From Protoeuglena noctilucae (lineage: Eukaryota): a stretch of DNA of 64,000 nucleotides. The notes under the pieces are model-generated. The model searched no databases, was not told where the DNA came from, and was given only the letters and a program-made list of their open reading frames with translations. Location: the NCBI GenBank assembly GCA_958009085.1, contig OY253681.1:806001-870000 (forward strand), written 5' to 3'. Position numbers and translations under genes: made by a program. Position 1 is the first letter of the stretch; every line of letters begins with the position of its first letter. Positions 1,243-64,000 of this stretch are shown here, piece after piece.

Positions 1243-2278
1243 TCAGTGGCTTGAGAGAGCGCCCCCAGTCTGCGCGGTCATGACATCAATCGTGTCCCCT
1301 TCCTCCAACTCCAGGCTGTGGGGGCTATCCGTCGGATTCACGGGCTGCGGGAGATCCAGATTTCTCGGCTTCGTCCCCGGCTCCGCGCGCAGGGCCCGCC
1401 AGCGCCACAGCTGCGCAGCCGCTCTCGCCTGCCCGTCAAACATGAAGCGGACCGTCGATTCCTCCTGAGCCATCTGCTCGCACCACTTCCTGATGATCTT
1501 CGAGAACGGAGTCGAGCGCTTGACCTTGAACGTCAACTCCTTGTTGTCCTGCGGGCGGAAAGAGGGCTCTGAGGTCCCACAAGCCGCGTGAGGTCCCTGC
1601 GCCACGAATCGCATAGTCCAGACGGTAGGTAGCCGCGTGAGGTCCCTGCGCCACGAATCGCAGAGTCCAGACGGTAGGTGCAACATTCAGGCGAGCAGCG
1701 CTGGGCGAAAGCCGGCCCCACGGCGGGAGGAAGCCCCAACGCCTCCCCGCGCCGTGCACGCTTTGCCCCGCAGCGCGACCTTCCACACGTGCGCAAAGCC
1801 AGGCGCGTGCATGCATTCCCGACCACTACGACAATCCACAGGAAGCACGGGATGCTGGGGCGGGTCAGCGCCGGGGTGCTGGAGCCGGGGGCCCGGCGCA
1901 CCGTGCTCCCTGCCCCGCTGGCATCCCAAGCGCCATCCGCGATCCCAAACACACCGAGACACCCAAACACACCGAGAGTCGCTGCCGAAACGAGGGCCCC
2001 AGTCGACGGATCTACGCGGGGATCGGCAGAGCGCAGAAAGCGCGGAGGGAAAATCACCCGAGGGTCGCCGGGGTGAACCAGTGGCTGCCCGACGATCCGA
2101 CGATCGGTAACCTCTCGATCGCATCGCGCAACATCCCGAGAAGATGGTCCTCGCGCGGTAGTGGCCCCGAGCACTCCATCCGTTCTCTGAAGCGCGCAGT
2201 CCAGCTCACCTGGGACTTGACCTTGATCTGAATATGCACCTCGCCGTCGGGTTTCACATCAGGCTTCTCCTCCGCCAT
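1243..2278 (-). CDS. SUMO: Small ubiquitin-like modifier (SUMO), 3 exons
   Basis: Exons MAEEKPDVKPDGEVHIQIKVKSQ | DNKELTFKVKRSTPFSKIIRKWCEQ...VRFMFDGQ | PVNPTDSP..LELEEGDTIDVMTAQTGG-ALSSH, with a di-Gly motif. Introns 2209-1549 (GT-AG) and 1428-1345 (GC-AG). Confidence 0.95.
1582..1679. repeat. 49-bp tandem duplication (2 copies, 1 mismatch) inside SUMO intron 1
   Basis: agccgcgtgaggtccctgcgccacgaatcgca(t/g)agtccagacggtaggt at 1582-1630 and 1631-1679. Confidence 0.95.
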
Positions 2279-2917
2279 CTTGACGCCGCGCGAGCCCCGA
2301 GGATACACCGGCAGCAGCCGCCCAGTACCGCAACGCACAGCGCAGTCAGTGGAATGGCAGTTGGGCCCGCCTGGGCCCCTCCATGGCAGCGCCATGACCT
2401 AGCATGACCTAGTTTCATGCGACTACCTGCCAGCTCCTTTGCGTGTTCTCGCTGCGCACACCCTCGCCAGTTGCTGCCATGGCACTGCGGAACTGTCATC
2501 TTTGCCTCTGTCGCGTACCAGAGCCCTGCACGGCCCCGAAAGCACGGGCCACCTGGCGCCCCGCGATGCGGAGGAACCGCGTGTCAATAAGCCGCTACGA
2601 CCCCTGAAGCGATTACTATAGTTGACCTTAGTTGCATCGCGGCGTCGCGCCCGTCACCGGTGCCGCCCATCGAGCACGGCAGGGTTGCCTGCGACCCACT
2701 GCAGGGTCCCCGCCCCTCGCGCGAGCGGGCTCCCTCGCCTCTCCGGGAATGCCCGCGAACGCTGCCAGCGAGGCCTCCTGGGGCCTGCTGCTGGGAACCC
2801 TCGCATCCACGACGCAGCGGCTGTCGGAGCGAAGGTGAGCCGCAGCTCGCCTGTGAGGGGCGATGCCGCGCGCGATGGGGCCCGTACCATGACCGCGACT
2901 CACCAGATACCTCAATC

Positions 2918-5900
2918 ATGCATAGAGGAAACCGTCACACCTGCGCGCGCCCCCGCAGCACGAGGAAAGCCAGCCTCCCGTCCCCTCCCGCTCCGACCCT
3001 GGAGTCCACCCTCGGCTGGCCCTCTCCGCCCCCCGCGCGGGCCTCCCCGCCGCCGCCGCGCGTCCCGATCGCCGACGCCGCACTCTTCCAGCCCCGTCCC
3101 GTGCGCTCCCACCTGGTCGACGAGCTGGAGGCGTTAAGGCGAGGGCCATGTGGTGTGCACACAGGCCACCCCTTACGGTTCCTGACCCAACCCTTCCCAA
3201 CCAACCTAACACGTTTCACAGGGACGACATGGTCGCCGAGGAGTGGGAGCGTTATCAGTCACAGCTGTTAGAGCAGTCTCAGCGACTGCAGCAGTCGACA
3301 TACCCCGACGCCGCATCGATGGCTGCTGGTGATGTGGTGACGGCGGAGGTGGCCGCACCGGGCATCGTCCGCGTCGAGTTCGGCGCAACGGACGCGCCCG
3401 CAACGTCCAGCCCGCAACGCCACCCGACCCACCCCAAAGAGTGGCCTGCTGCACTGCAACCCGACTCAGGCGCACCTGTCAGGGCAGAGGGTGGCAGTCC
3501 CTCGCGGGTGCGCGTCTCCTACAGCCCCGCTCCGGCGTCGTCCTCCCTGCCCGGCGATGCGACTCGCGGCCTCTCAGCCACCGCTGCCCCTGCCGCTGCT
3601 GCTAAGCGCCTCGCATCTGCAGAGGAGATGCCCCCGCCCCCACCACGCCTCCCCGCCCAAATGCCTGCGTGAGTGTCGCAACCCCGCTCGCTTGCTGCGT
3701 CACGATGCTCTTGCTGTCGGTAACTCCGTCATCACCGTCCATGCCTCACCAAGCATGCTTCAAATTCCCTTATCTCGCTCCCCCGCCGCAGTCAAGGCCC
3801 CGCGGCGCCCGTAGTGCGAGAGCTGTCCTTCTCTGGCGCCGCTCCCTCTGCACACGGTGAGCGTTGAATGGGGTGCATGGGGTGATGACATGTCGTGAGC
3901 GTAGCAGGCCGTCACCCTCACTCGCCCACCACCCCACCCACACCCACACCCTCATCACCACCCCCAGGCACCCCCACCGCATCTCACGCGCACCCCCCGC
4001 CCCTCTCGCCCCGCCAACGCCGCGCCATCGCCTCCGTCCAAGACGCCGTCCTCTCCGCGGTCCACGGGGGCCCATCGCCCTCTCACTCCGCCCACCGCGC
4101 CATCGACGCCATATCATCCAAGGAATATACTGACCCGGCCATTGCTAGAGATCGCCGATCCACGCAACAGGCCACCTCCCCGCGACGACTGCCCCCCGCG
4201 CCTCATCCCCGATCCCCACCCACAGCCGACGCCCCCCCGCGCCACCTCCCCGCCTCCGCCCCCGCCTCCGCCGCCGCCTCCCCCGCTCGGCCCACGCCCC
4301 ACTGGGCTCACCGCCCAGCCCAGGACTGGGGCTCTGACCCGGCAGGTCCCGGATCAAATCCCACCGACGTCGACCGGTCCCTTTTCAGCCCGGCGCACCG
4401 CCCCGTGCTCTCCCCGAGAGCCGCCCGGGACGCCGAGAGGCCTCCAGGCAGCGCCTACGGAGCAGGGCCGCACCCGGGGCCTCACTACACCACCCGCACG
4501 CCCCTTGCTGCCAGCATGACTGCCCACGCGTCCGCCCACACTGCGGCGCCGCTTCCGGACGCAAGCCTGCTCGACTCCCGGCGCCCCGCGTCGCACGGAG
4601 GGGGCCGCTGGACGTTGGGTGCGCCCCCCTCGCCGGTGCGGGGTGCGACGGGTGCGGACGTCGGGGCGCGGTCGCTGCTGGAGACGCCCCGGTGGCGCAT
4701 GGAGAACGTGCGGCGCATTCTGAACGAGATCCGGCGGCGGCCGGGGTCGGGAAGCCACTACGGTGCGACGCCGTCGCGCGGTGGGGCACGGCCGACGTCG
4801 GCACCCACGTCGCCACTCCGGGTGGCAGCGTGGGCACGCGTACGCCTCCCCCCACCCCCCACGCCCGCCACGCCGCTGCTGGACGCGGTCCTGCGCAATG
4901 TGGCGCCCTATGCCACCCCCGGCAGCCACGCCCGCTCAGATGCGTATCTGGGGCATGACGACAACGCACACTCGGCAGTGCCTGTGCCGTCAGCAACTGC
5001 GTCCTTCGATGCGCTGCGCCGGCCGAGGTCGCCGATGGAGTCGCTCGTGGGGCGGGACGTGCGCAGGGATCCCCCGACGCGGCCCGTCGGGGAGATCATT
5101 GAGGTGAGGAGGGTGTGCTTGGATGGGACCACAAGTGGTGTTGCCAGGGGTTGCCACTGACCCATCCCTGCATGCTCTCACGCATCACCCTGCTATCATA
5201 TATATCCATTCTGACCTCTTTCGCACCCTACCTCACCTCCCGCAGGACGGCTACGACTCCCCCAGTCGGTCCGGCGCCCCCCTCGCCTCCCCGCCACCCA
5301 CGGCTGTCCTCCTGCCCCCACCGTCGCCCCAGCAACTCCACCCGTCGTCTCCTGGCCGCTCTTACGACCCCACCAGCCTCGCCGTCGCCTCGCAGCCCCC
5401 CTCGCCACCCTCCGCTTACACTGGCGACCCACGCGCCTTGACCTCGACCCACGACCCGCACCCCACGCAACCAGCCCCGACGTCTCCTGGCTTCCGCCGC
5501 CATCGCGACCTGTTCTCCGTGACCCTGGAGCGCACCGTGGCCGCCGCAACGTCCCCAGTCCGCGTGTCCTACAGCCCCACCGCACCTTTGACAAACACCG
5601 GTTCCGGGGTTGGGTCCGGGGTAGCAGGGGTAGCGGGGGCGGCCTATGCTGGCCCTGGGTCGCCGCGCGCGGCTTACGAGAGCAATAGCACCGCTTGGCG
5701 GGGCTCTGGTTACGGCGCTGTGCCGGCAGCGGGGGTGCCTGGGAGTGCGGCGGTGATGGCGACACCGGGGGCGATGGGGAGAGAGTCGAGAGCACTCTAC
5801 ACCCCCGCTGGCGGTAGTATTGGGGCCGGAACCGGGGTGGCACGGAGCGCGGCGACTGTGGCGATGAGCGCTGCCGATGCGCGTGCGGGGCTGGCGAGCG

Positions 5901-5974
5901 GGCAGTCGCGGATGCGCGTGCTTCGCGACACGCTGGCTGAGATCCGGAGCCCGGTGCGCAGCATACGGCGGTGA
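2918..5974 (+). CDS. Hypothetical Pro/Ser/Ala-rich, largely disordered protein, multi-exon (start uncertain)
   Basis: Open frames are linked by splice sites, e.g. GC-AG intron 3139-3221 joins LEALR|DDMVAEEWERY. Internal repeated motif RVSYSP; TGA at 5972-5974. No recognisable domain. Confidence 0.55.
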
Positions 5975-6375
5975 TGCTGGTGTGTGTTTAGGGACGTAAC
6001 AGCTGATTGGGAAACTAGGATTGATCGCATAGACGTAAGGGCCATGTTTTGAATCCAATAGCTGTCTCAACAGCTTGTGAGGAGTGGCTTATGCTGAGCC
6101 TGGGTGACTGCAATGTGCCGATGAGATGGCTGCCAATGAGCTTGGTGTGACAGAGATGTGCTAGTAAAGTGCAATGCCATATGATAAGCAAAAGGAAACC
6201 CCCACCCCACAACGGAGCGTCGTGATGGGCTGCCCACCACCACAGCACTGGGCTGTCCAATTATCCAATTCCCCCTCGTAGCGACACCTCACATGCACCC
6301 CACCACCTGCTGCACCCACGCCGCACCCTCCCACCCCCTCCCTCCCCACCCCATCCACACCCACTCACTCCCCCC

Positions 6376-7291
6376 TCATGCCACGTAGTCGACATACGGC
6401 GCCCGGTGCACCCACTCCTTCCGGCTGAGCTCCTCAAAGGCGAACTGCGCCAGATCGGCGTAGGAGACGCGCTTGCGGGGCACGTGGCTCACCGCATGGA
6501 GCTTGCCCTGGGGTGCGGCCGGGAGAGCAGGAGGGGTGACAGCAAGGTCGATCCAGGCAAGCGGGCACATTGCGCTGTATGTCCTGTGACATGTTCAGCA
6601 AGTACTAGTACAACTGAGTACATCCCACTCCTCTCCTAACTCCTCTCTGCTCGCCTTCGACCCCAGGTGCGCAGGCCGCCCAGTGCGTAGGGTGGTCCAG
6701 TCGATGTCAGAGCACTCGTTGGTGAGCAGCTGGATGGCCTTGTCGTCATCGGCCACGGCCTCGTCGATGCCCATGAGAGGGGCCACGAGCACCAGAGCCA
6801 CCTTGGCCACCAAAGGGAGGTCCCAGAAACTCTCGTTAGGGCCCGCGCTCAGGGAGCCGGCCTGGAACAGGAACCGCGAACAGCCCACGCGGCGGCAGCA
6901 CTGCACGATCTGCGGGACGATTGAAAAAGCTCGGATCGGATGACCAAGCGGGAGTAGGGGCGCGGCGGGCTTTGTATGGACGCCCTGCCCCTTGCGGCTG
7001 CACCTGCGTCACCAATTCGAGCTTGCTGACGTGACGCTCCTCCTCCTCGTCGCCGGAGAAGTACACGACGGCATCCGTGCCCTCTCGAATGGCATCGCGC
7101 ACCTCCTCGGCGTTCTCCAAGCGAATGGGTTCGCACGACAGCTCGCCCAGGTAGGGATCCCGCAGGCGGCTTTTAAATGCTTCTGGGTCGCGCGCGTACG
7201 CACGCACGTGCCACCTCTTGTCCGCAGCGAGCATCGCAAACTTCGCCGCGGTCTCGGATCCGCAGCCGAGGCAGATGATGGTGCGCTCCAT
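6376..7291 (-). CDS. NAD(P)-binding Rossmann protein, flavin reductase/biliverdin reductase B-like, 3 exons
   Basis: MERTIICLGCGSET...WHVRAYARDP; SDIDWTTLRTG; RVSYADLAQF; EWVHRAPYV. GC donor at 6654. Confidence 0.75.
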
Positions 7292-7756
7292 GCCGCCCGC
7301 TGTACAGAATCGAATAGGAACTGCAATCGCAATGAGTAGTCCTCTATTATGTAGACGAGGCGATCGAAGGGAGGAATGGCGTGTATGGGCGGCGCCAGGC
7401 TGGCCAAGAGAGCGGGCGCGCCCGGCACTGTGACCTGACGCTGCCTGCCAGCTGAGATGCAAGCCCGCGTCTCCTCCGACCTCCACTTCCTGTTGGCTAC
7501 CTCACAGCAATCGCGCACACTGTCGTTGGTCACAACCACGTCACGAACCAGCTCTCACGCAGTGACGGCATCGCAGAGCCGATGCTTGGCCCACGGCCAC
7601 CTGCGGATGCGGCGTTGTGACCCGCGATGCCATGGAGTGGCGCCGGCTCGCAGTCCCTCCAGCAGCGAAGGGGCGCTGCGGCGGTGTCCAAAACCGAGGC
7701 CGGCGGGCGGATGGAGGCGCGCGGGGCTCGCCGAGATCGCGTATCTGACAAGGGAC

Positions 7757-10700
7757 ATGTTGGAAGGTGCGCGACGCATCCCTACGCTTCTGCGCTCGAC
7801 GCGAGGGGCCTCACCCGCGGTTCGGTGACGCAAGCCTTCTTTGCCTCCACGGCGCCATTGAACGCGATGCCACCGCCTCGTTCGCCTCTCGACTCTTTTG
7901 ATGTGCGTGTTGAGTGCTTGTGCGACGACTCCGGCCCGTGGATGGCTTGGGAGAGGGGGCCAGGCAGTCGGGCGTAATCGCGCTCCCTGCGGCGCGCTAC
8001 CCGAGTAACTTTGCCCGGTCCTGGCAAGGCCATTGACATCTTCGCGAGATGCGCTCGCAGGGCATCCAACGGGCGCCGAAGTAGACCCGTCCGGCTGTTC
8101 GCGTGGCTGCACCAGTTCCTCGTCACCGTGCATGCCCTCTGGGCGTCTGTCGTCGGGTGGTTCGTCGACAATGTCATGCGTGAGTGCTCTGCGCTATGTT
8201 CTTCAGCTTCGACGCGAGCGGCGCACCGCGATCCTGCGGGGTTCCGCGCGTCGGCCCTGCCGAACGACACCCCACCATCTTCTGCCCTGTCGGCTTCGCG
8301 GGGATCGTTTCGTGCAGAGCAACTGAACTCACATGTCGCTGATCTTCCCGCAGACTCGGCGGAGGAGTATTCCAAGTCCGTCATGCGCGAGGCGTCGCAC
8401 CAGATGGCCCGCTGGGCCCACAAGGCTTCCTACTGGGCGGGCGCCCTCATGGGCGGCTCCGCCTACTCCGACAAGGTCATGGCGGAGTCCAAGCGACTCG
8501 ACGCGTGGCGCAAGTGGTGGAGCCGGCCCCGGATGTCGACCCTGAACGCTGTCCTCGACCGAGCCACGCCGCCCCACGCCCAACACTCCCGCCCGCCTCC
8601 CGTGCCCGTCCCGCCGCAACTTCCCCGCGACGTGGACCCGGACGACGCCCGTGCTCCCTCCCCAGCCGCGGGCGCGGACCTGTTCGAGCGGTCCGGGTGG
8701 TGGCAGGACCCCGGCAACCCGATGCATTCGCAGCGCTCGGGTCTGCTGGAGGACGTCAGGATCTCTCTGGAGGTGTTTCTCACGCGGGCTTTCCATCGCG
8801 CGCGGCTGCTTGTCCGCGCGCTGGCGCTCGCGCGGGGACAGGGTACCGGTGCGCACGGAGTCGACGATGGGGAGTCGGACGGGTGGACCTTCCCGGCCGA
8901 CGACATCAGCGGCGGCATTACTCCCGAGGCGCCCACGCCCGCGGGGCTCAGCCGCGTCGGGTCGCACCTCAGCCTGGGCCGGGCCAACTCAGGTGCGGCG
9001 GCGCATTGATAGCATCGCGCCATCATTCGAAGCGCAGCGCGCGGATCGGCCCGCCGGTCATTCTCGCGTGTCGCTTATATCTTTCTCCAACTCCTCGTCC
9101 CCCGCTGCGCCCGCAGAGCACGCCCTGCTGGCGCTGGGGATGGGCGGCACGCTCCCGACCAAGCCGCGGGCCTTACCGCAGCACCCTGCGCCCGGCCTGG
9201 CGCTGGACCGGCAGCTGAACCTGACGCGACTGAGCGAGCGCCTGACGCAGCTAAAGGAGGCGGGGGAGGGCAGCAGCGAGGGCAGCGACGCTGCGTCAAA
9301 CGGCGAAGGGGACGGCGCAGTGGGGCTGGCGGGGGCCCCGAGCCTCGCGGAGGCGCTGTTTGGGCTGCGGAGGAGCGGCGGGCAGTCGCAGTCGCGGCCG
9401 GCGGCGACGCCGGAGGGCCGCACGACCCCCACGGCCACGCCCAGAGGCGGACGCCCTGCAGCGACGGGAGCGGGGACGGGGGCGGGGCTGTCCCCCCGGG
9501 GCGCACCGGCGGGGCCGGAGGGGCCGCAGTCCGCAGGTCTGGCTCCGGCGCACTCGGGGCTTGGCGCGCGAGGGGCGGTTGGTGCGGTGCTGGGTGGGGC
9601 GGGCAGCGTGTCGCTGCGACGGAGCAGCAGCTTTGCGCGGGGCATTGGCGGCGGGGTGCCTGGCCGGGGAACGGCGGACGACGGGGCGCTGACGGGGCGG
9701 GAGGCGGCAGCGGGGAGCGTCGGGGGCGTGGGGCGGGGATCCTTGCGACGCACGCGGAGCTTCAGCAAGTTCGAGGCGAGTGTGGGTGTGTGGTTGTGTG
9801 GATGTGGGTATGGGTGGGTGACTGTGCATATGTGTACGTGGCTGTATGGCAAGCAACCTTCCCACCCCCCCCTCCCTGCTCTCACAGGACCTCCAGCGCT
9901 CCCCTCACTTGGCGGGCAAGTCCCCCGGCACCCCCGCCAAGGCTCTGGTGGAGCAAGCGGGTTATCCCTATGAGAGTTACGAGGTGGTGACCAGGGACGG
10001 GTACGTGTTGGCGTTGGAGAGGATCCCAAGGCCAGGGGCCAAGCGAGTGGTGGTGAGCGGCGGTGGGGTGGGGTGGGTGATGAGTGGGGGAGGGTGCTGG
10101 AGGGGTGTTGAGGGGCGGTCGGGAGAGGGGTGCCATGCATGCATGGGTGCGAGTGGGGGGGCTGCATAGTAAGACTATGCTGACTAGCTAACCTCTTGAT
10201 AGTACTAGTGTGCCGTCATGCGCGTCAACACGTGTCCTCGCCCTCCCCCACCAGTTCTTCATGCACGGCGTGATGGACACGTCGGTGGGGTGGGTGGCCA
10301 ACGGGCCCCAGAGGTCCCAGGCACTCGCGGCGTGGGACGAGGGGTACGACGTCTTTTTGGGAAACATGCGTAGCTCGCCCCCCTGGCTCAACGTGCACTA
10401 CTCCTACCGCAGCGCACGGTACTGGGCGTTCAACATCAACCACCTTGCCACGGGTGAGTGGGGAGTGGCACAGTGCATTTTTGGTTTGCGCAATAATGGG
10501 TACTTCATGAGCAAATGGGTTTGTCCCATGATGCCGGGTGCTGTTGCTCATCAAATCGATCCTGATCTTTTCCATCTCTCCCATCGCAGTGGACATGGAG
10601 TGCATGATTGACCGCCTCCACCAGGTCAAGTGCGCGGAGCTGGGCGTCTTGGACGTGGGCGAAGCACGGGCGTTTGAATCCCAACTGTCAGGCCTCTCCA

Positions 10701-13042
10701 CAGCGCCGTCCTGGGCAGCAGAAGCGGTGGGGCTGAAAAACATGGAGAGAGGGGAGGCGGGCGCAGCGGGGCAGCAGGCGCTGAGGGATCTGGGAGCGAG
10801 GGTGGCGGGCGAGGGGGCGGGGGGGGCGAGAAGCAAGGGACAGGGCACGGGGGTTGCAACGGGAGGTGTTACAAGTGGTGCGGCGGGGCAGCGTGCGCCG
10901 CGGCTATCGACACCCACCCCGATGTCCACACCAGCAGGCACCCCCCCACGGTCCCCACTCAAGCCCGGCATTGCGGCACGCGGTCGCGTCGACTCGAGCC
11001 CTCACACCACCCTCCCCGGCGCTGTCGGCGACGCGCGGGGCTCTCTGTGGGCCCCCGCGGGCGGGCAGAGCCTGGGTAGGCGTGGGGCAGGGGCGGCTGA
11101 GCAGGGCCGCGCCTCTGCCGGCGATGGGCACGGATCAACACCCCATGCGGGAGGTGGCGCCGCTTTACCCGCCACGCTCAGCGCGCGCGTGTCCCGCCGA
11201 TCTGGGGACGCCGCGCGAGCCCAGGGGTCGTTTGAGTTCCTGCCAGCCGGGTCCCAGAGTGGGCGCTTGTCTGGGGTGGAGGGGCGCGAGGGTGGCGGGG
11301 AGGGCAATGCGAAGGCCAAGTCGGAGGACTTTACCATGGTCGGGGCGCGGGGGCTGCGGGGCATGCCGCGGCGGGGGTTAGGGGTGCTGTGGGTGGTGGG
11401 GCTGGTGGGGCTGTGGGTGACGGCGGTGTGGGAGGCGGTGTGGGGGTGGGTGGCGGGGGTGCGGCGGTGGCTGGGGCTGGGGTGGGAGCCGGCAGCGAGC
11501 GGGGAAGCGGCAGCGGAGGGGAACGGGGGTGTGCCGACAGGGCAGAGGAAAGGGGTGGGGGTAGGGGCCGGTGGGGATGCGCCGGCACAGCCCTACACGC
11601 TGCAAGCCGTGGCTCACAGGCGAGGGGTGGGGAGGCATGAAGATGCGTCTTTGCTCATCTGCACTGCACGAACTGTGTACTGTGTTTGCTTATGTCCACC
11701 CCACCCCCTCTCTCCTCTGCAGCCTGGGTGGCATGTGCGTGCTCATGTATTGCGTCAACTGCGAGATGGAGGGGCGCCCGCACCGGTTCTCACGGCTGGT
11801 GCTGCTCAGGTGAAGGGCTGATGTGTTATGTCAAGGGTTGGTGCCGACCACCCCACCCCACCTTCCACCATAGCCCTCACCATAGCCCTCCCTTCACCCC
11901 CAATGCCCGCCACCCCATCTTCACCCAATCCCCCCCCATCTCCGCCCCCAGCCCCGCCGGCTTCCACGTCTACCTCAACGGCGGCATGCGCATCCTCCTC
12001 TCCCTCCTCCTCTGGGGCACCTGGTTCCTGCAGAGGGTCCTGCGCCAGAAACCACTCATGGGATTCCGGTGAGGATTCCATGGACATTCAGACTTGTTGG
12101 CAATCCAGTGTTATTTTTCAAATTTTGAGCATTGACGGTTGCACGAGATGCTCTGCAACCCCATAGGGCCGCCGTCATGCTTGCCACCCCACCTCCCCCA
12201 GGCAGTCATGTCGCTGATTCCCTAACAATCCATGCCATTGCCACCGTGTCTCTCACCTCACCTTATCCCCATCCACCTCCCCCGCAGCGTCCCCGCATCG
12301 TTCCTCCGCTCCCTGTTCTTCAAGCTGGCCCTCGACATCCACCGCATGCCCGCACTGCGGGAGCTGGTACGGCTCACGGCGGGGTGGCTGACGGGGAAGG
12401 ACGACTCGGACTGGGAGCGGGCGCTGCTCCTGCCGCACTTCCGGGACACCATGCCCGCCGTCAGGTGCGACGCACAGGAGGTGTTTTGCTAGATTGTGCA
12501 CCCACCCTGCCGTGTCGCCCTGGCCTCTCGTGGACCGCCGCTTGCAGCCACGCGATCCCAGCACTTCTCTCCTCTCTCCGCAGTCTTCTCACGGCCATCC
12601 ACTTCGCCCAGTGCCACCGGTCGAAGAGATTTCAAATGTACGACTACGGTCCCCGCATCAACTTCCAGATCTACGGCCAGCGCACGCCCATCGACGTCGG
12701 AGCGCAGTATTTCCGACTCAAGGTCCCCGTCGACCTCATCGCGGGAACGCGCGACGGCGTCATCACGCGAGAAAACATCCAGGCGAGCGCGACTGCAGTG
12801 ACGACCCAAGCGGTGCAGCAGACGTAATTCCGGCATCCTGCAGCGCGGGGAGAGCTTGGATACCAAGATTATGCTAATATTTGTACTTTCGTGTATCTCC
12901 GCAGGTGCACTTCAACCACATGTGGGAGCAGGGGGTCAAGGTTTCCTACAAGGAGTTTGATTTCGCGCACCTGGACTTCACGTTCGGCCTCAAGGAGGAC
13001 GCACAGCAGTACGTCATGTCGAGATTGAGGCTCTCCTCTTGA
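7757..13042 (+). CDS. Alpha/beta-hydrolase lipase (acid/triacylglycerol lipase family with AB-hydrolase-associated lipase region), multi-exon; start approximate
   Basis: AGYPYESYEVVTRDGYVLALERIP; FFMHGVMDTS.GWV.NG; GYDVFLGN.R; nucleophile motif AH-S-LGG across intron 11620-11722; FQMYDYG; FAHLDFTF. Confidence 0.88.
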
Positions 13043-13635
13043 AACACGCTTCCCTCTTGCCCTTCTTGCCTGCTCTTACCGGCACGCGCTCAGCCCCGAC
13101 GGCGCCCTCCCCCCCGAGCCTTTTTCGGTTTCTTCGGTTACGGGAGAGAGGGCGGCTTGAGGTGACGAACCGCTTCACACCTGCTCCACTTTTTCCTCTT
13201 CAGTGCCCTTTCCACGCCTTCTCTCCCCCCACGGTCCCTTCCCCGCGATTTCTCTGCCTCTGTCGCGCTTAATAGGGGCCCAATATGTCACAATATGTTG
13301 TATCATCTACGTCTGCTGTTGTTCTGCATGCCAAAGCGTTTTGAAGGCCTGTGCTCATGCATCACTGACACCTTCCCCACCAGCACCCCCTCTGGCCCGC
13401 AATTCTAGGGCGCGCCGCCCACTGCCGGTTGCACATCACCTCGTAGTACTGCGTTTGCGCATCCATCGGCCGGGGCCGGACGCTGTGGGCCCCGCTGAGC
13501 GCCCTTGCAAGCCCCGCGTGGATGCCGTCGCGGCGGCTCCTCGCCCTCACTGCGCGCATCTTTCCTTCGCACGCTAATCTGCACGACGCACTGGCTCATC
13601 GGCCGCATCCGCTCGTCGCGCGCGATTTCCCTGCG

Positions 13636-16345: not shown

Positions 16346-16530
16346 GGAAGGGGTGCTAGGATGGGTGGGAAGAGAGCGTTGGGTTTCTGATTTAAACACT
16401 GCTTGTGCGTTCAAATAAGGATTTGCGTTGAAGTGGCACGAGCGAGACGATCAGTTAAGAAAAGGACAGGTCCTACCACCCCTCTCGCATCCCACCCCAC
16501 CCCCACTCTGTGTCTGTCTGTCTCAGTTCC

Positions 16531-45728: not shown

Positions 45729-45990
45729 TCGTGTCGATGACGCACCCCAACTGTTCTTTTCACTCTCTCGCCGCCAACTCGGTCGCGAGAGTCATCCCGA
45801 TGGGCACATGATTCGCTCGACTTGGCTTACGTCGCCACACTGACGTGGGATAGCTCCTCCAGGTGCGGATACCGGTGCATGCTGTCCGTGCGATGGACAG
45901 CAATCGCGTTGACGGCGCCCCGGCGCGCCGATGAGCCGCGCCGGCCTCACCACATGTGTGTCATACGCAGTATATGCCAACGCGATTCCC

Positions 45991-52769: not shown

Positions 52770-54274
52770 ATGCTCGGGGCCCGTCTGTCGCTGCTGCCGC
52801 AGAAGATCGGTGTCCGTGAGTCGGGGGCGTCTCGATGCGTCGCTGCGATTTCTCCCTTCGCGGTCGCGTATCGCGATTCGTCCGGCGCGCGGTGCCTACG
52901 AGCTTACATCGTCCCCGCGCCCTAGGCCACTTCCTTCCCTCCCGCGCAGGCGTCCCCGCGCGTCCATCCAGCCGCGTCGTCAGGATGGCGTCGCTCCCTG
53001 AACTCACGATCTGGGTGAAAGGCAATCCGAGCAAGGGCGAGCGCGGAGACTGCCCCTTCAGCCACAAGGCGCTGCTGTCGCTCGCGAACAAGGGCGTGCA
53101 GTATCGCGAGGTCTATCTCGATCTGAACGCGAAGCCCGAGGTGCGTGATGCGAATATCAAGCCATCGGCTCTCCCCCGGGCCCGCTCTAGCCCATCTCGT
53201 CGCGCCTCACCTCACCTCGCTGCGCTCATCACCTCATCGCCCGTGAGTCTGAGGCTGTGTGCGAGAGAATGAGAATGACAGTAAAGATAAGAGTGTAAGT
53301 GCCCCGCAGTGGTACGCCGCGACGATCAACGCCAAGGGCTCCGTGCCTACGCTCATCGTGGGCGGACCCGTGGACGCCGAGGGTCGCCCCGCGGACGGCT
53401 TCTCCGGCGAGCTGATCGGCGACTCGGGTCTGGTGGTGGAGTGGGCGGAGCGGGAGGTGCCCGTGCCACCGCTGCAGCCGCGGAGCGATGAAGAGGCGAA
53501 GCTGGGGGAGGGGTTTATGGGGGCTTTCAGGGACTTCCTGCTGTGCAAGGACGGGGAGGTGGAGGAGAAGGCGAGGGGGAGGCGATGGGGGGGAGTGTGG
53601 GGTGGTTGTTTTAATTTGTCGTTGGATCGGCGCACCGGCCCTCGTTCGCATCACGCGCCCATCTCACCCAACTCATCTTACCCTAGCTCACCACGCCATC
53701 GCCCACCCCACCCACATACCCACCCACACACCCACTCAACCCATCTCCCCTTTGCCCCAGAAATCCGCATTCATCAGTCAGCTCCAGTCCCTGGAGTCCT
53801 TCCTCTCCACCCACGACGGCCCCTTCTTGGGCGGCGACATGATGCGGCAGACAGACTGCCGCCTCGCGCCCCAGCTCTACCACTCCATCGTGGCACTGAA
53901 AGAGTTCCGGGGATTCGATGTGCTGTCTCAATTCCCTCTGCTGACCGAGTACTTCCAGGCGGTGAGGGGCTGGGGGGAGATGTATGGGGTGACGCATGGG
54001 GTGATGTGGGGAATGGGGTGACATGAGCTGTGCACCTACCGCACCTGCTACCGCCGCTCCCATCGCCATGCTACCACTCCCTGCACCCACTGCACCCGCT
54101 ACCGCTCACCTCCCTTGCCACTGCCCCTCTCACTTCTCTCCGTATGTCATCTCTTATTCGTCGTCTTGGTCATCGCAGGTGCAAGGCACGGATGCCTGGC
54201 ACAAGACGCACTACACGCCGGAGGTGATGGTGGCGGGGTGGAGGCCCAAGGTGGAGGCGGCGAGGAAGGCGTGA
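52770..54274 (+). CDS. DHAR: Dehydroascorbate reductase, with a short N-terminal extension, 5 exons
   Basis: IWVKG...GDCPFSHKALLSL..K; KPE|W; GSVP; IGDS; GPFLGG; DCRLAPQLYH; VMVAGWRPKV. Confidence 0.92.
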
Positions 54275-54890: not shown

Positions 54891-57800
54891 TCACACGTTC
54901 TCCCGTATGAGCAGCGGCGCCCCCTCGCATCCCCGGCTGTTGTCCACGAAGGACAGCTCCCACATCTCGATGCCCGCCGGCCGCAGGGCCGCCTCAATGC
55001 GACGCAGCGCCTGGGGGGGGGTGAGGGTGTGGTAGAGAGAGTGTGTGGTAGAGATGAGATTGAGAGTGGCAGAGGGGGAGAGAGTGTGGCATAGATGAGG
55101 GTGGAAGAGGGGAGAGTGGCAGAGGGGAGGGAGTGGCAGTGGTGAGAGTGGCAGAGTGGGAGAGGGGAGAGTGAGAGTGGCTGAGAGGGGAATGTGTAAG
55201 AGGGGAGAGTGGCAGTGGCGAGAGTGGCAGAGAAACGGGAGATGGCGAGGGGCACAGACTCCCTCGTCACCACCAATCCCCCTCCCTCGTTACCACCAAT
55301 CTCCCTCCCCCCCTTTCCTCACAACCCACTACACCCTCACCTCCCCTCACCACCCCACCCCCCCCCGCCCCCACCCCTCCTGCTCACCTCCTCATCTTCC
55401 GGCCACTCCCCCGTCCTCGTCCCAATCACCGCCCCGCTGTAGCTGAGCCCAGCCGCGGGTGCCACTCCCTGGTAGTAGAAGACACCGAATGACAGGTCGT
55501 CGGCAGCGTCCAATATGCGCCAGTGCTCCGTGGACGTCACGCCGTTGTCTAACACGCTGCGGGGATGGGGGAGTGGGAGGGGGGTTGGTTATAGGGATGG
55601 AATGGTGATGGTGGTGTTAAAAGCACTGCAGTTGAGAAGCCCCTTGCCACCCCACACTCCACCCCCATCACCTTCACCACCACCCCCTCACCTGAACCAG
55701 AACGCCCCCGGCTCCTCCCCCCTGCGCACCCGGTAGTGCCTCCGACACCACACCTCGCGCCCATCCAACGTCTTCACCCGAAACACGGGGTCATACCACA
55801 GGGTCTTGCCCCCCCTCCCCCGATACCACAGCTGGTACTGGCATGGGAATTGATCGTATGCCGCGTTCTGCCCCGCGGCCACCCGCCAGCTCCAATCGAG
55901 GTCGCCGTTCGAATCCCGCAGATGTCCCAAAAAGATCGCCTCGGCGCTTTCGTGCGTGAGGGGCTGCCCCCGCCAATGGGAGAAAGGGCGCACGGCCGGC
56001 AGCGTGGGTATCGATGCCGATTGGTCCATGCAGTTGTGCTTTTGGAGCACACAGAGGGAGAAGTCGCGGAATTGGGGGGACTCGAAAGACACGATGGCGC
56101 TGGGGGGGGATGGGTGGGAGGGGGGGGGGGATGAGGGTGTGGGGTGGTGTGGGGGGTGAGGAGAGGGGTGGGTGAGTGAGGGGTGAGTTGCTGGGAGTGT
56201 GGGTGGAGAGAATGGGTGATATTATCCTCACTCTCTTATCTCGTCCCCTCCCTCCATCCCCCCTCACCGGTACGCCCCACTGTCTCTCCCATCTCACCTT
56301 TTCTCTCTGATCTCACTTCCAATCCCCTAATTACCATCCCCCCTCACCGGTACGCCCCCACTTGGTCGTTCAGCCCCACGCGCTGCAGCTCATCCAATGC
56401 CTGCCGGCACGAGGGGTTGGCGAAACACGCTGCCACTTCTCTCGTGCAGTAGCGGAGCATGCGGAGGGTGCCTGAGGGAGACATGCCCTGCTTGGGAAGA
56501 AGGGGGACCTGAGAAGGGGGGGGTGAAGTTGGGTGAGTAGGGGTGAGAGGGGGTGAGTGGTGGGGGGGTGGTATGAGGTGGGGGACATGCCCTGCTTGGG
56601 GAGGAGGGGGACCTGGGGGTGGGGGGGGGGGGTTTAGTGGGTGAGAGGGGTGGTGAGAGGTGGGGGACATGCCCTGCTTGGGGAGCAGGGGGACCTGGGA
56701 GGGGGGGGATGGAAGGGGGACGGGTGAGTGAGAGGGTGATGGGTGGGTGGCGAAGGGGGTGGTGGTAAGGCGAGTGGTGGGCGTGGTGGTGCTTGCAAAC
56801 ACGTCGCCTCTGCCACCCCTCTCAGCCTTGCACGCACGCACGTTTCACACGCACCCCCCTCCCCCCCCCCACCACCCCCTTCACTCGCCCGCGTGACGTA
56901 TGCGTCCACCAGCACCAGCGTCAGAAACAGCCAGTCGTCAGAAGTGTCTCTCGCAGCCAGCTCCCGGCACACGTCCCTCGTCTCCCTGCCGGCCGCGCTT
57001 GCCCAGAACACGGGTCCGATCAGGGGCGTGCGGGAGAGGGCGCTCTCCCATCCGGCGACGGTGCGGTCGTCGCTGCCGCGGAAAGCGCCCAGTTGGTCAA
57101 GGGAGGAGGACTGCGGGTGGTGGGGTGTGGGGTGTGGGGTGTGGGGTGTGGGGTGTCGGGTGTGGGGTGTGGACTGCGGGGGTGGGGTGTGGGAGAGGGA
57201 GAGGGAGAGGGAGAGGTGTGAGAGTGAGAGTGGGACAGACAGTGACAGACAGTGAGAGATGGACATCGTCACTAAATGCACACTGCAGCCTCACCAGTGC
57301 GGGGCTGCATCTCAGGCACAGGCGCGTGGGGATGCGGCGGAGGGCATCCGCACGGGCACTGGCAGCGCGGCCGGCGAGTGCCTGAAACGCCGGGGAGGGG
57401 CCCTCGATGCCGACGCACAGGAGCACGTGGGCCGTCTGCGCCGCCTCCGCCAGCGCTGCGCCCTGGGGATGGCATGAAAGGTGGCGGGGCGTCCACAAGC
57501 GACAAATTAATTGCACCGCGTTCGCATCCCGATTGCGCGGTTGACTGCACCTTAATGTCGTGAAATACAAGTATCAATCACCTTCGCGTCGCCGGCTGTG
57601 AGGGAATCGTCCGCAAAGACGTCCACGGCGATGCGCGGGTCCGCCCACTGGATGCGCTTGGCCACGTGGCGCAGGACGCTCTCCCAGGGCGGGCCGAGGG
57701 GACTTGGGCCTTTCGACGCAGTGGGCGTGAGAATGAGCACCCTGCGCGGCGCACCGAATGCCGGATCGAACGAATGGCGGAGACCGGTAGTTGCAGCAGA

Positions 57801-58019
57801 GCAGCGGCCCCGCGCTCGCCTCGCTGACACTTGATCCGGGCGCGATCCTTCCGTTGTCGTCTCGACGACGCTCTCCGGCGCCCTGGTCGCGGATGGCGCG
57901 GCGACGCGCGCGCCGGGGCCGTGCCTCATGTTGCAATTGCAGGGCCGCAGCGCCCGCGATTCGAAGCCTCGACGCGGCGCCGCCAATCCCGCAAGCGCAC
58001 AAGACAGACCAGCTGCCAT
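54891..58019 (-). CDS. VDR: Violaxanthin de-epoxidase-related protein (VDR), multi-exon, transit peptide-like N-terminus
   Basis: CTREVAACFANPSCRQALD; NDQVGAYR|AIVSFES; FSLCVLQKHNC; WRVAAGQNAAYDQFPCQYQLWY; WYDPVFRVKTLDG; SVLDNGVTS.E.WRILD; WELSFVDN. Confidence 0.85.
55079..55232. repeat. Imperfect gagagtggcag tandem repeat in the last VDR intron
   Basis: Repeated gagagtg(t)ggcag/gagtggcagtgg units, pyrimidine-rich on the transcribed (-) strand. Confidence 0.7.
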
Positions 58020-58537: not shown

Positions 58538-61500
58538 ATGGTCAAGGTCTGGGGCCCCGAGAGGTACGTGCCGCATGAGTGTGCTCGGTCGTCCCAACGC
58601 GGGACCCTCTGCGTCGTCTCGACTTCGGCTCGTGGTGGCAGGGACGCAGCGGCAGCGTTGCAGGTCCTCAGAGGTCCGAGAAGGCCGAAAGAGCGCTGCT
58701 TCCTATTCCTCGCAGTGACGATGACTCGGTCTCGTCGGGGTCGATCGTCGCGCAGGGCTATGGGGGCGCGGGAGGGCGAGCCGCGGGTCCAGCGGAGCTG
58801 GCGGGCCTGGACTTGGAGGTCCGGGACGCCGCGGAGGTGGAGCGACGAGTGATTGCGGAGCAGGAGGTGTTGCAGCTCGAGGCGGGCGTCGCGGCGGCGC
58901 CCAGGGAGGGTGCAGCTGCCCAAGGGGGGCCAGGATCGGACGACGCGGCCGCTGCGGGCGGGGACGCGGCCGCGAACGCTGCGCGACTGGCGGCGATCCA
59001 AGAGGAGATTGCCGCGCTGGAGGCGCTGAACGCGGACGGCGCCCCGGGCGTTTCCAAGGGCCGGCCGCATGGCAAGCGTGCGCGCCCTGCGGCCCCCGCG
59101 CCGGCCGGCCCCGTCTACACGGCGTCGCCGGGTCCGGACCCTTCTGCAGATGACCTGCAGCGGCGCCTTCGGGAGCAGCGCCTGGCGGATTTGCGCCAGG
59201 AGGCGGAGAAGTTACGCCACGCTGCGCTCGGGGGCCCTGGGCTATCGGCGGCCGATGCCTCGGGTTTAGCTGTATCGACGGAGGCGAACACGACGCGCCG
59301 GCGGGCGACGGGCAGCAGCTGGGGCGCGGTGGCGGGGGCATCGGCCGCAGCCCCCCGTCGCCAGAAACGCAAGAAGCACGTGGTGGTGGAGGACGCCGGG
59401 AGCTCCGAGGACGAGGGCGGGGCCGCTGCTTTGGCCGGCAGGCGAGGGGGAAAGAAGGGGGGGCTTTAGCAGGGCGATTGCCTTGACGCTCACCATCACT
59501 CGTCACTGGGTAGTGCTGTATAGGAAGGAGTCATTGCCACAATATAACACTCTTATGCTTTCATCCATCCCTTCTTCCTCGCCCGCTTGCTTCTCAGATC
59601 CGGCCCAGCCTTGGTGGAGACCACAAGGGACCGCCTGATCCGCACGGGCGTCATCACGCCTTTTGCGGGGGTGCAGGGATTTGAACACGGGGAGAGGGCG
59701 GGGGCCACCAATGGAACGCAGGAGACGGCGGGGGTGGCGGGGGCGGCGGGGGTGGCGGGGGTGGCTGGGGCGAGGGGTGCGGGGGCGGGGAGGGTGGCGG
59801 AGGGGCGGGGGCGGCGAGAGGTGCGTGGGTGGTGTTTGTGCTAACTTTGCTGGTGGCGATGCAAGTGGTATCGTCATTGTCACTTGATTGGGATATGCAT
59901 GACGTCTGCTAGCATGTCCAATCGCACCGCTGACTGTCGGCAAGCACTGCAACCCTTCCCTTGCCCATATCGCTCACAATACCCTGCACTGTCAATCAAT
60001 TCATGAAACTTTGATAACAACCGCAGACGCTCCACGACCGCCTCCGCCGCGCCGCCCGGGCCATCACGGCTGCGAGGGAGGCAGACGCGGATGCGAGGGC
60101 GGTGACGGGGACGTTTGACGATGCTGGGCCGACGGATGCGGATGGGTGGGGGGGTTATGATCACGGGCCGATACCCAGGGGGACGCCCAGCGTTCGATTC
60201 CACGAGTGAGTAGTGAGTGGGGATGTTGGTTGGTTGTTCATTGTGATATGTAGGTGTGGGAATGGGTGTGGGTTGTAGGTAACAGGAAGCATCGGTTGCA
60301 CCATCATCCATGCAGGAAGGGCAAGCCCTTGCGCCCGGTGTTAACCAGGGAGATGCGTACGATGCGCGTGGAGGTGACTGCGGGGAGGGGCCAAGGCAAG
60401 CGGAGGCGGAAGCGCGAGGCTGCGACTGGCGGGGGCGGCAAGGGCGGTGATGGGGATAGCATAAGAGAGCGTGGGGGTGGGAGGGGGGGCAGGGGGGGCG
60501 GGGGCGGTGGGGGCAGGGAGGGGAGTTCGAGTGATGTGGAGGTGGTGGGGGTGCGGGTGGGGGGTGGGGGTGAGGGAGGGGGTGGTGGTGCGGGTGGGGA
60601 GGGGTCAGTGGGAGTAGCTGGGGTGGGAGAGGGGAGAGCGGGGGGGAGTGGGAGGGTGGTGGAAGTGGGGACATCGGACAGTGATGGTGACGGGGGAGAG
60701 TCAAGTGAAGTGGGGTCGGAAGGGACGGGTGGGAGTGGAGGGGATATGGATGATGTGGGTGACGAGGATGGGGATGAGAGTGAAGACACGGAGAGCGATC
60801 CGGACGACCCATACGCGAGGTGTGTGATGGCTGGCTGGCTGATGTTGATTGGGATGGCTGCTAATATATGATGGCAATTGGGATGGTTGTTGCACTCATA
60901 CGCAAGTATCAAGCACCTGTGAGCACCTTTTGGACAATCCCAATCCATTGTTGCATGCGCGTACTCTCCCACTCACTCTCATGCGACTTCTCACTCTCAT
61001 GTGACTGTGCAGGGACGATGCGGTGGAGGCGGACTATGTGGCCAGGTGTCGGCGGGAGCTGAGGAGACAGGAAAGGGAAGAGGAAAGGAGGAGGCGGGAG
61101 AGGGAAGAGGGGAGGAGAAGGGGTGCGGGAAGGGGCAGTGGGGGTGGGGATGGTGGTAGGGATGGGGAGGATGGGGTGGGGGTGGGGGCGAGTGGAGCGA
61201 GTGGTGATGGTGCAGCGGGTGCGGGTGATGGTGGTGGTGGTGGAGAGGGCACGAGTGGGCGTGTAGATGGCAACAACAGTGCGGGTGTTGGCGATGGGTC
61301 CAACGGTGGCGTCGCCCCAGCTGATCCCGATCCCGACGTGACATTCGACGGTGGTCTCTGCGTTCCCCATAACATATGGTCCAGGATGTTTGATTATCAG
61401 CGCACGGGCCTGCAGTGGATGTGGGAGCTGCACACGCAGAGGGTGGGGGGCATCCTGGGGGACGAGATGGGGCTGGGGAAGGTGAGGGGGTGGGTGGGTC

Positions 61501-64000
61501 GGTGGATGGGTGGTGGTGGATGGGGTGGGGTAGCAACCATTCATTAACACCCCATCTTTCATCCCCATCTCTCATCGTCTCTACTCACCCATATGACAGC
61601 ATCTTCATTTTTCATTATCTCTCCTCCTTCACACCGCAGATGGTGCAATTGGTTGCTTCTCATCTCTAGCACTGCTCCCCCCCACCGCAGACGGTGCAGG
61701 TGGCCGCGTTCCTGGGCAGCCTCCACCACTCCGGCCTCTACCGCCCCAGCCTGGTGGTGGCCCCTGCCACCGTGCTGCGTCAGTGGATGAGAGAATTGCA
61801 TCGATGGTACCCGGTGTTCCGCGTCTACGTCATGCACGACTCGATGAGGACGACGGGGGAAGCGACCCGGTGAGTGATATTACTGATAGAGAGTGATGGT
61901 GACTGTCATGCACGACTCGATGAGAGCAAGCGGAGAAGCGAGCTGGTGAGGGATGGGAGATGAGGGAGATTGCGTGAGAGTGAGAGTGAGAGTGTGCGTG
62001 ATGCACGACTCGATGAGAGCGCAGCGCAGTTCATATCCGTTGGCCCCTCCCCTCTCCATCGCCACCCCACCCCACCCCACCCCATCCACCACCCAACCCC
62101 CCCATTCACAGCGAAGCCAAAGAGCGTCTGTTGAGAGACGTTCTGGCAGAGGATTCTGGCATAGTGATTACTACCTACGAGCACGTGAAGCTGTTCGCGG
62201 ACGTGCTGCTCCCCGTCAGCTGGGGCTACGTGGTGTTGGACGAGGGTCACAAGATTCGAAACCCCGACGCGGACGTCACCGTGGTGTGCAAGCAGATGCG
62301 CACGGTGCACAGGTGAGGGCGGAGATGAGAGGGGGCGACACCAGTCAAGTGCACACAGAGATGCTCTTTCACTCACCCTCAACCCCAACCACCCACCCTT
62401 CACCCCCAGGCTCCTCCTCTCCGGCTCCCCCATTCAAAATTCCCTGGTGGAGCTCTGGTCTCTGTTTGACTTCGTCTTCCCCGGCCGGCTGGGCACCCTA
62501 CCCGTGTTCACGCAGCAGTTCGTGGACGCCATACAGGCGAGGAGTGATTAGTTACTAAATAGTGACTATTATCGTTTATATTTACTACTGATTTGCGGGA
62601 TGAGATGGTAACGCTTGCACTCCTCACCACCTTAACCACCCCATCTCCCACCACCCCATCCCTCACCCCCCACCCCTACACACAGAGCGGCGGCTACGTC
62701 AATGCCTCCAAGCTGCAAGTGGCCACCGCCTATCGGTGCGCTGTGGTGCTGCGCGACCTCATCGCCCCCTACCTCTTACGGCGGCTCAAATCGGACGTGT
62801 CGCTGCAGCTGCCCGACAAGACGGAGCACGTGCTCTTCTGCCAGCTCACGCCGGAGCAGAGGGCGCAGTACCTGGGTGAGTTGGATAGCAGCGCTAGTAA
62901 TGGCGATGGCAGTGCTTGGGTGAGTTGAATAGCAGTGATGGCAATACATGGGTGAGACAGTAGCTACATCAACGGTGGCATTTACCACAGCCATCACCGT
63001 CACGCATGCATGTTCCATTATCTTCCCACCCCCCCCCCCCCCCCCCCCCCCAAGCGTACCTGGGCACCTCCGAGGTGGCCCGCATCGTGAGCGGGGAGCT
63101 GCACGCGCTGGCGGGCATCGGGGTGTTGCGCAAGATATGCAACCACCCCGACTTGCTGAGCCGGGTGTCGATGGCGGGGGAGGCTGCGTATGGGGACCCG
63201 GAGAGGTCGGGGAAGCTGAGGGTCACGGCGAGGGTGCTGCAGATGTGGGCGGAGCAGGGGCACAGGTGAGGGGTATGGGTGGGGGTTGGTGCGGTTGGGG
63301 TTGTGACATGAGGGGTGGGGGTGAGATGAGGGGTGTTGTAGATGTGAGCAGAACCTCAATGCATGCACTTACCAGGAAGTGCAAAATGCACAGACCCCAC
63401 CTCTCACTCCCCCTCTCCCCCCCCACCCACGCAGAGCTCTGGTCTTCACGCAGACGCAGCAGATGCTCGACATCTTGGAGAAGGCCACGCAGTCGCTGGG
63501 GCTGCGGTACATGCGCATGGACGGCAACACGGCGGTGCGCGTGCGGGCGAGGATGGTCGACGTGTTTAACAGCGATGAGAGCATGGCGGTGTTCCTGCTC
63601 ACCACGCGCGTGGGGGGGCTGGGGGTCAATCTCACAGGTGAGGGATGGAGAGATGCGGAGATTGTGTATGTATTACTATTGTTATGATTGATATGTTTGA
63701 TACTCGTTGCTGCGGATGGCATCAGATTGGCGGTACAGATTGACACAGCCGCACGAGTCAAGCGCACATTCGCTCTTTTTGCACATGGGACGACTCAAAT
63801 TCCACAACACCATTGTACTTTACGTGTCAGTACACTCTACATGATATGCTATTGTGATATCCCATATCTATCGCAGGTGCCGACCGTGTCCTGCTCTACG
63901 ACCCCGACTGGAACCCCATGACGGACGTGCAGGCGCGGGAGAGGGCGTGGCGCGTGGGGCAGAGGCGGCAGGTCACCATCTACCGACTCATCACGAGCGG
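58538..64000 (+). CDS. ERCC6: SNF2-family ATPase ERCC6/CSB/RAD26 (CHR8-like), multi-exon, runs off the 3' edge
   Basis: [131 protein letters not shown]. Confidence 0.94.

Follow-up and report, generated by a model that had tools for sequence, protein, structure and literature searches.

GC-AG introns, which carry GC instead of GT at the donor site, average 1.2% of introns in a survey of 121 plant genomes that includes algae (PMC6310983), and their donors follow a compensation rule, being nearer to the consensus at the other donor positions than GT donors are (PMC2490688). Much larger shares are described for two groups of algae. In the haptophyte Emiliania huxleyi, whose genome has about 65% GC, 56–65% of the junctions are GC-AG, and its genes are mis-modelled by predictors built on the GT-AG rule (Feldmesser et al. 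2014, PMC4028052). Among the pelagophytes, GC-AG introns make up 14–17% in Aureococcus anophagefferens and 14% in Pelagomonas calceolata (bioRxiv 10.1101/2024.10.30.620910), and the authors of both the E. huxleyi and the pelagophyte study ascribe these shares to high genomic GC. In the present work, we analysed a stretch of 64,000 nucleotides from Protoeuglena noctilucae (the window; contig OY253681.1, positions 806,001 to 870,000, assembly GCA_958009085.1), for which an original prediction, made from the sequence, had claimed a very high frequency of GC-AG introns. This high frequency is confirmed as real by RNA, gene models, homologs and motif counts, and roughly 20–30% of the introns in the window are of the GC-AG type. 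The baseline of about 1% that the original prediction had assumed agrees with the 1.2% of the plant survey (PMC6310983), but overlooks the exceptions in E. huxleyi and the pelagophytes.

The introns of the window share the GC donor, the AG acceptor and the near-consensus flanks with ordinary U2-type GC-AG introns, but the latter account for about 1% of introns, and the frequency here is about 20 times higher. The likeness to E. huxleyi comprises the high GC, a GC-AG share far above 1% and the canonical AG acceptor; the difference is that GC is the majority donor there, against about 23–27% here (PMC4028052). The pelagophytes are similar in the magnitude of the share, in being GC-rich marine algae and in the attribution to GC content, but have 0.2–0.9 introns per gene (bioRxiv 10.1101/2024.10.30.620910), whereas the gene models of the window contain about 5–6 per gene. 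The lineages also differ. The nearest named match of a methionine aminopeptidase 1 (MetAP1) exon is Pedinophyceae sp. YPF-701 (79%), and the best named matches of a KIF9-like kinesin are green algae, again with Pedinophyceae sp. YPF-701 as the nearest. Because the best named matches of these two conserved proteins are green algae, the host is, judging from protein similarity, a chlorophyte, and thus neither a haptophyte like E. huxleyi nor a stramenopile like the pelagophytes. Since the lineage differs from that of E. huxleyi, the trait would have an independent origin. Among the hits listed by literature searches without supplements, none describes a green alga with a comparable GC-AG share, although one may exist. 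We therefore file the window under the known type of elevated GC-AG share in GC-rich algae, here in a different, intron-rich lineage.

The original prediction had flagged 25 donor positions among an estimated 100–110 introns. GC stands at a donor-like site on the plus or minus strand at all 25 positions, and the motif is AG/GCGAG at 21 of them (the slash marks the exon-intron boundary) and AG/GCAAG at two (19813, 49813); the remaining two are CGG/GCGAG (56888) and CAG/GCAACA (32322). Gene models were obtained with a self-trained generalised hidden Markov model, in which the codon log-odds were first trained on Pfam-matched stretches and a single donor matrix served GT and GC donors, with a GC prior of 0.1 and four rounds of self-training. 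This gene finder reproduced nine of ten RNA junctions (one GT donor was displaced from 10053 to 10077) and called GC-AG introns at 22 of the 25 flagged donors; of the three that it missed, 1428 is supported by a Pfam boundary and the protein tail, and 56888 and 32322 are candidates. With strand masking at three places where Pfam puts the gene on the opposite strand, the tally was 88 GT and 31 GC introns in 21 genes; with the manual addition of the 1428 intron, 32 of 120 introns (27%) are GC-AG. Removing six dubious GC calls, two contradicted by RNA (10826, 11080) and four with weak context or support (1752, 33728, 45710, 56807), leaves 26 of 114, or 23% (95% confidence interval 15–32%), so that the approximate proportion of the original prediction is reproduced. 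Even with the GC prior lowered to 0.01, 24 GC introns were called among 116. In this one 64-kb window, the gene model and the RNA alike give a GC-AG share of at least 10% with a canonical AG acceptor.

Direct evidence for splicing at GC comes from RNA. In one run search, four metatranscriptome runs contained 17–43% of the words of positions 9500–19499, and DNA runs contained all of them. Contigs from the RNA runs X1, X2 and X3 and from the DNA run X5 were placed on 3000–22999. Among the joints listed (10 of 27), all 10 were found in RNA only, each in one X1 contig and one X3 contig; X1 and X3 are two samples of one study. When each cut was shifted within its reported ambiguity to find GT-AG or GC-AG solutions, GT-AG was the sole solution for seven joints and GC-AG for the other three, the latter allowing no GT solution within the ambiguity. 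These three introns are:

6508–6654, minus strand: GC-AG intron with donor aag/GCGAGC (flagged 6654), skipped in X1 and X3 RNA contigs
12783–12904, plus strand: GC-AG intron with donor cag/GCGAGC in a lipase-like gene (flagged 12783), X1 and X3 RNA contigs
14938–15100, plus strand: GC-AG intron with donor aag/GCGAGT in a RadA-like gene (flagged 14938), X1 and X3 RNA contigs; an AAA_25 Pfam match stops at the exon end

At a GC-AG rate of 1.2%, the probability of at least three such joints among ten is 2e-4. Twelve flagged donors lie within 3000–22999, and all three that the listed joints can test are spliced at GC; the other nine are absent from the joints listed, and the RNA therefore speaks neither for nor against them. 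The use of nearby GT donors in RNA, which the original prediction had named as the observation that would contradict it, was seen at none of the three testable sites.

Two predicted GC introns of the gene finder (10826–10963 and 11080–11181) were rejected, as the contigs X1 10842–11264 and X3 10846–11257 are colinear with the genome there; the segment 10826–11181, which belongs to the lipase-like gene, is of low complexity and represents either exon or retained intron. Low-depth X2 contigs run unspliced through 9308–9964 and 14087–14503. Since they are of low depth and may be DNA or pre-mRNA, no conclusion was drawn from them. Loose RNA contig ends occur at 19887 (X1/X3) and at 20393 (X2/X3), the latter inside a kinesin exon, and one odd RNA joint, which carries four additional letters, leads from 20410 to 14648; these ends and the joint may reflect chimeric contigs or cross-matches to paralogs. 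Of the 241 X2 contigs placed on 3000–22999, 209 are only 95–99% alike to the window, and the sample thus seems to contain, next to the source of the window, a second strain or species related to it.

Protein continuity, as judged from Pfam coordinates and homolog alignments, supports about nine more of the flagged junctions and one junction that the original prediction did not contain (30345). The introns considered in this respect are:

28861–28973, minus strand: GC-AG intron in the MetAP1 gene (flagged 28973), homolog alignment
30126–30345, minus strand: GC-AG intron with donor ctg/GCGAGC in the MetAP1 gene, newly found, homolog alignment
19813–19969, plus strand: GC-AG intron with donor gag/GCAAGT in the KIF9-like kinesin gene (flagged 19813), Pfam and homologs
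21633–21818, plus strand: GC-AG intron in the kinesin gene (flagged 21633), gene finder
22837–22961, plus strand: GC-AG intron in the kinesin gene (flagged 22837), indel-free alignment with P0124 and P0130, the two nearest homologs
16913–17079, minus strand: GC-AG intron in an Fcf2-domain gene (flagged 17079), Pfam; read-through meets a stop after 30 nucleotides (nt)
16655–16778, minus strand: GC-AG intron in the Fcf2-domain gene (flagged 16778), Pfam; read-through stop after 22 nt
11620–11722, plus strand: GC-AG intron in the lipase-like gene (flagged 11620), gene finder; splicing restores HSLGG
1345–1428, minus strand: in-frame GC-AG intron of 84 nt in a SUMO-like gene (flagged 1428), Pfam boundary and tail
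62537–62685, plus strand: GC-AG intron in a SNF2-family helicase gene (flagged 62537), Pfam; read-through stop after 12 nt
46428–46677, plus strand: GC-AG intron in a GST-zeta-like gene (flagged 46428), junction indel-free against P0122
47087–47290, plus strand: GC-AG intron in the GST-zeta-like gene (flagged 47087), flanks match P0122 in one frame with the junction in a gapped loop

The most stringent cases are found in the MetAP1 and kinesin genes. With the junction FTIE/PMINEG at 28973, the spliced MetAP1 model is free of indels against 12 of 12 homologs, and the GT-only alternative would cost five residues; at 30345, the junction is indel-free in nine of 12 homologs, with the segment missing from the other three. 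Across 19813, the kinesin Pfam coordinates proceed from 145 through a 37-residue exon to 184, and the junction is indel-free in all nine kinesin homologs. At 21633, the downstream exon opens at a conserved segment, and the donor side lies in a region that is variable among the homologs. In the Fcf2-domain gene, profile positions 3–45 reach up to an exon end and positions 48–91 span the whole of the next exon, which brackets 17079 and 16778, and across 62537, the SNF2 profile continues from 157–194 to 200–249. The 11620 intron lies within the codon for the serine in the nucleophile elbow of the lipase.

The match of the SUMO-like gene to Rad60-SLD breaks off exactly at 1429 (profile position 49 of 72), and the exon downstream of the 1345–1428 intron ends in a di-glycine tail. 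A public open reading frame (ORF) call, P0121 (123 amino acids), reads through the intron and thereby adds 28 residues before this tail; because the intron keeps the reading frame and contains no stop codon, it was missed by the gene finder and by ORF callers alike. A search with the SUMO exon returned the window's own read-through ORF P0121 as its sole match and no other homolog. The search with the GST exon yielded one homolog (P0122). In the model at 44914–47494 (plus strand), only the residues from about 221 align to the full-length GST-zeta-like P0122, which begins there; the model looks like a fusion, of which the first 220 residues may be a separate gene.

Nine further flagged donors are probable according to the gene models, and some additional sites were proposed in the same way:

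3139–3221, plus strand: predicted GC-AG intron (flagged 3139), gene finder only
9776–9887, plus strand: predicted GC-AG intron (flagged 9776), gene finder only; a low-depth X2 contig is unspliced through it
17745–17841, minus strand: predicted GC-AG intron in the Fcf2-domain gene (flagged 17841), gene finder only
33322–33512, plus strand: predicted GC-AG intron (flagged 33322), gene finder only; read-through stop after 18 nt
34543–34718, plus strand: predicted GC-AG intron (flagged 34543), gene finder only; read-through stop after 26 nt
43361–43537, minus strand: predicted GC-AG intron (flagged 43537), gene finder only
49813–49918, plus strand: predicted GC-AG intron with donor cag/GCAAGC (flagged 49813), gene finder only
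53571–53760, plus strand: predicted GC-AG intron in a GST/DHAR-like gene (flagged 53571), gene finder; GST_N exon before, GST_C exon after
59442–59597, plus strand: predicted GC-AG intron (flagged 59442), gene finder only; read-through stop after 25 nt
56488–56888, minus strand: candidate GC-AG intron with donor cgg/GCGAGT (flagged 56888), first round of the gene finder only
33938–34090, plus strand: extra predicted GC-AG intron with donor aag/GCGAGG, unflagged, gene finder only (2.9 nats)
57742–57819, minus strand: extra predicted GC-AG intron with donor gag/GCGAGC, unflagged, gene finder only (2.7 nats)

At 56888, the later rounds of the gene finder took the frame-equivalent GC donor 56807, and at the flagged candidate 32322, an in-frame GT at 32286 is favoured.

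Several controls address the degree to which GC donors might be products of the modelling. When GC donors were forbidden, the parse score fell by 220 nats and the number of gene models rose from 21 to 26. The replacements in this GT-only run were weak in-frame GT sites 7–117 nt away (e.g. gat/GTACTC), and at the three RNA-tested sites, the replacement donors are not those used in RNA. When one of 14 decoy dinucleotides was offered as a third class beside GT and GC, it was picked 0–5 times with gains of 1–23 nats, compared with 31 picks for GC. An earlier form of this control, in which the decoy was swapped in for GC, gave 7–17 picks and was discarded and redone with the decoy offered additionally, since these counts were inflated by decoys that stand in for true GC donors one or two bases away. 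Independently of the gene models, the heptamer AGGCGAG occurs 35 times in the window, against 13.4 ± 3.6 expected (2.6-fold), and none of 100 dinucleotide-preserving shuffles reached this number. The strand distribution is strongly biased, with 29 copies sense to gene spans, five antisense and one intergenic (binomial p = 4e-5), and the excess of about 22 agrees with the 23 inferred donors that have this heptamer.

The contexts of the two donor types differ. GT donors in the window are mainly G/GTGAG or G/GTGCG, whereas GC donors are almost exclusively AG/GCGAG, as is evident at individual positions:

A at −2: 28/32 GC donors, 56/88 GT donors
A at +4: 29/32 GC donors, 54/88 GT donors
G at +5: 31/32 GC donors, 75/88 GT donors

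A full match at the five scored positions is present in 25 of 32 GC donors, compared with 20 of 88 GT donors (Mann-Whitney p = 6e-7). The context AG/GYGAG contains 23 GC and 19 GT donors and all other contexts nine GC and 69 GT donors (odds ratio 9.3, p = 7e-7), a contrast that is inflated because the gene finder penalises GC donors and therefore calls them mainly in strong contexts. The heptamer counts, which are free of this bias, agree with it:

AGGTGAG: 35 observed, 9.1 expected
AGGTGCG: 25 observed, 15.5 expected
AGGCGCG: 23 observed, 22.4 expected

Counts of BGGTGAG and BGGCGAG were discarded, as they are confounded by coding and intron repeats. At 56154–56722, a GGGTGAG cluster on the plus strand consists of C-rich CTCACCC repeats in introns of a minus-strand VDE-like gene and inflates motif counts. 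A WD40 gene of near-identical tandem repeats on the plus strand (1–900) runs off the start of the window; its repeats supply six coding TGGCGAG matches, and the one at about 590–640 has a truncated or recombined appearance.

Beyond the donor, GC and GT introns are alike, with a median length of 151 nt and a pyrimidine content of 0.72 in each, and CAG acceptors in 26 of 26 GC and 87 of 88 GT introns. GC donors carry the same GAG consensus at +3 to +5 as GT donors, which is unlike the U12 donor consensus. In dinoflagellate-type splicing, both GC and GA serve as donors; here, GA offered as a third donor class was picked twice, inside the decoy range of 0–5, and none of the 10 listed RNA junctions is GA-AG.

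The explanation that we favour, and consider likely, is that these are ordinary U2-type introns in which the change from T to C at +2 is near neutral when all other donor positions match the consensus, in a GC-rich genome. Substitution pressure in such a chlorophyte genome (61–69% GC in 4-kb steps across the window) would favour C over T, and C at +2 would be tolerated if all other positions that pair with U1 and U6 are consensus (AG/G-GAG). In this perfect-context class, position +2 would drift to about half C, while selection would keep T in weaker contexts. Splicing at GC itself is demonstrated for three introns by RNA and for about ten by protein continuity, and the data also establish that such introns are frequent and that perfect contexts are where C at +2 is concentrated; for the cause, we infer a pressure from mutation or from biased gene conversion, combined with a compensating effect of the flanks. 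In this view, the compensation rule described for GC donors (PMC2490688) is at work in a genome whose composition favours C, and an equivalent cause was proposed by the authors on E. huxleyi and the pelagophytes (PMC4028052; bioRxiv 10.1101/2024.10.30.620910). In perfect contexts, C makes up about 45–55%, and C/(C+T) in intron interiors is 0.56 overall and 0.42 in the context G_G. The GC-biased substitution that the original prediction had listed among possible causes thus fits the data when it is combined with a conditional tolerance at +2, the C share being near that of intron interiors. The relaxed recognition of +2, also listed there, applies with perfect flanks and fails in the GYGCG class; as AGGCGCG shows no excess, recognition would be relaxed only with perfect flanks.

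Several points weigh against this reading or limit its reach. Nine of the flagged donors come solely from the gene finder, and the support per site in knock-outs of single donors is small, with a median drop of 4.6 nats and of only 1.3 and 2.1 nats at two RNA-proven sites; since these knock-outs discriminate poorly, they are used descriptively only. The GC junctions seen in RNA are three, from two samples of one study and among the joints listed, and loose ends of X1 and X3 contigs at 19887 fall inside the 19813–19969 intron. The finder's penalty on GC inflates the context contrast, the homology-supported donor 30345 has a non-AG exon end, and the count for the −2 position (BGGCGAG, 90 observed versus 61.9 expected) is confounded by coding repeats. 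What we say on the direction of the T/C substitution, on the part played by biased gene conversion and on the efficiency of splicing is inferred, and one 64-kb window may be unrepresentative of the whole genome.

Among the other explanations, selection could keep GC donors as weak sites for regulated intron retention or alternative splicing, which appears unlikely. GC donors are implicated in animal alternative splicing (PMC2490688), the GC-rich donors of E. huxleyi are accompanied by high intron retention (PMC4028052), the SUMO intron is in frame without a stop, and one X2 contig is unspliced through 9776–9887. However, contigs cannot measure retention, X2 may contain DNA or pre-mRNA, and GC introns occur in housekeeping genes of all kinds. 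The C share of the perfect context moreover agrees with the neutral composition of introns, which makes selection unnecessary.

A variant U1 or U6 small nuclear RNA was also among the causes suggested in the original prediction. It is quite unlikely that the spliceosome itself is altered in this way, with a U1 variant (alternatively a variant of U6 or of a protein like Prp8) that tolerates C at +2 or pairs with it and makes GC a second canonical donor of the lineage. GC is as common as GT in the best context, as though +2 were not read, but GT is still the majority donor, AGGCGCG is without excess, and GC donors require stronger flanks than GT donors, as seen from A at −2 and +4. If U1 paired with C, GC donors could do with weaker flanks, and the tighter flanks in the data argue against such a U1. 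We consider it equally improbable that a chlorophyte lineage near the pedinophytes independently made GC a co-canonical donor through a changed recognition of the 5' splice site, by a U1 variant or a relaxed proofreading of +2. If true, the trait would have arisen convergently for a third time, after the haptophytes and the pelagophytes, and the lineage would offer a tractable green-algal system for studying how the spliceosome reads +2.

A modelling artefact, in which the frames could be joined via nearby GT donors and GCGAG is merely common in GC-rich sequence, is very improbable and largely refuted, because its support (an in-frame alternative donor nearly always present in DNA rich in open frames, cheap knock-outs, and the two finder-proposed introns contradicted by RNA) stands against GC use at all testable sites in RNA, homologs that exclude the GT alternatives at 28973, 30345, 19813, 22837 and 46428 (± 5 to 25 residues), the excess and sense bias of AGGCGAG, and the decoy control.

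The window contains many short-intron eukaryotic genes in tight spacing. Pfam searches with stop-free ORFs and predicted exons gave matches over many small open frames, which include WD40, SUMO-like, RadA-like AAA, Fcf2, kinesin/KIF9, SOUL, methionine aminopeptidase, LRR/F-box, AIR carboxylase, GST, VDE-like and SNF2 helicase. A tRNA scan and an Rfam scan of the 64-kb window gave zero tRNA and zero Rfam-recognised RNA, hence no small nuclear RNA gene there. A metagenome scan with an exon of gene 10 found no relative, and a scan with the MetAP1 exon returned 80 loci of at most 71% identity and no close relative for a comparison of orthologous introns. Just 5' of the SUMO-like exon, at 1571–1680, a segment of about 50 bp is duplicated in tandem, the two copies being identical but for one base. 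The depth of the DNA run X5 reaches about 359 at 15006–15672, an intron region of the RadA-like gene, compared with about 42–45 nearby, and falls to about 20 at 16340–20341, with contig breaks at 15062–15741 and 20872–20950. This pattern suggests that a C-rich repeat of high copy number is present in the intron and perhaps, in addition, that one stretch is specific to a haplotype.

The GC-AG share of the window is striking when compared with the textbook figure of 1%, but published precedents and a plain explanation exist. Gene predictors or RNA aligners that assume GT-AG would mis-model about one in four introns here. The sharp dependence on context provides a quantitative handle on how flanking U1/U6 complementarity buffers position +2. 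With this window, a green alga joins the few GC-rich algae in which numerous GC donors are described, and the finding favours base composition over lineage as the factor that determines the share of GC-AG introns.

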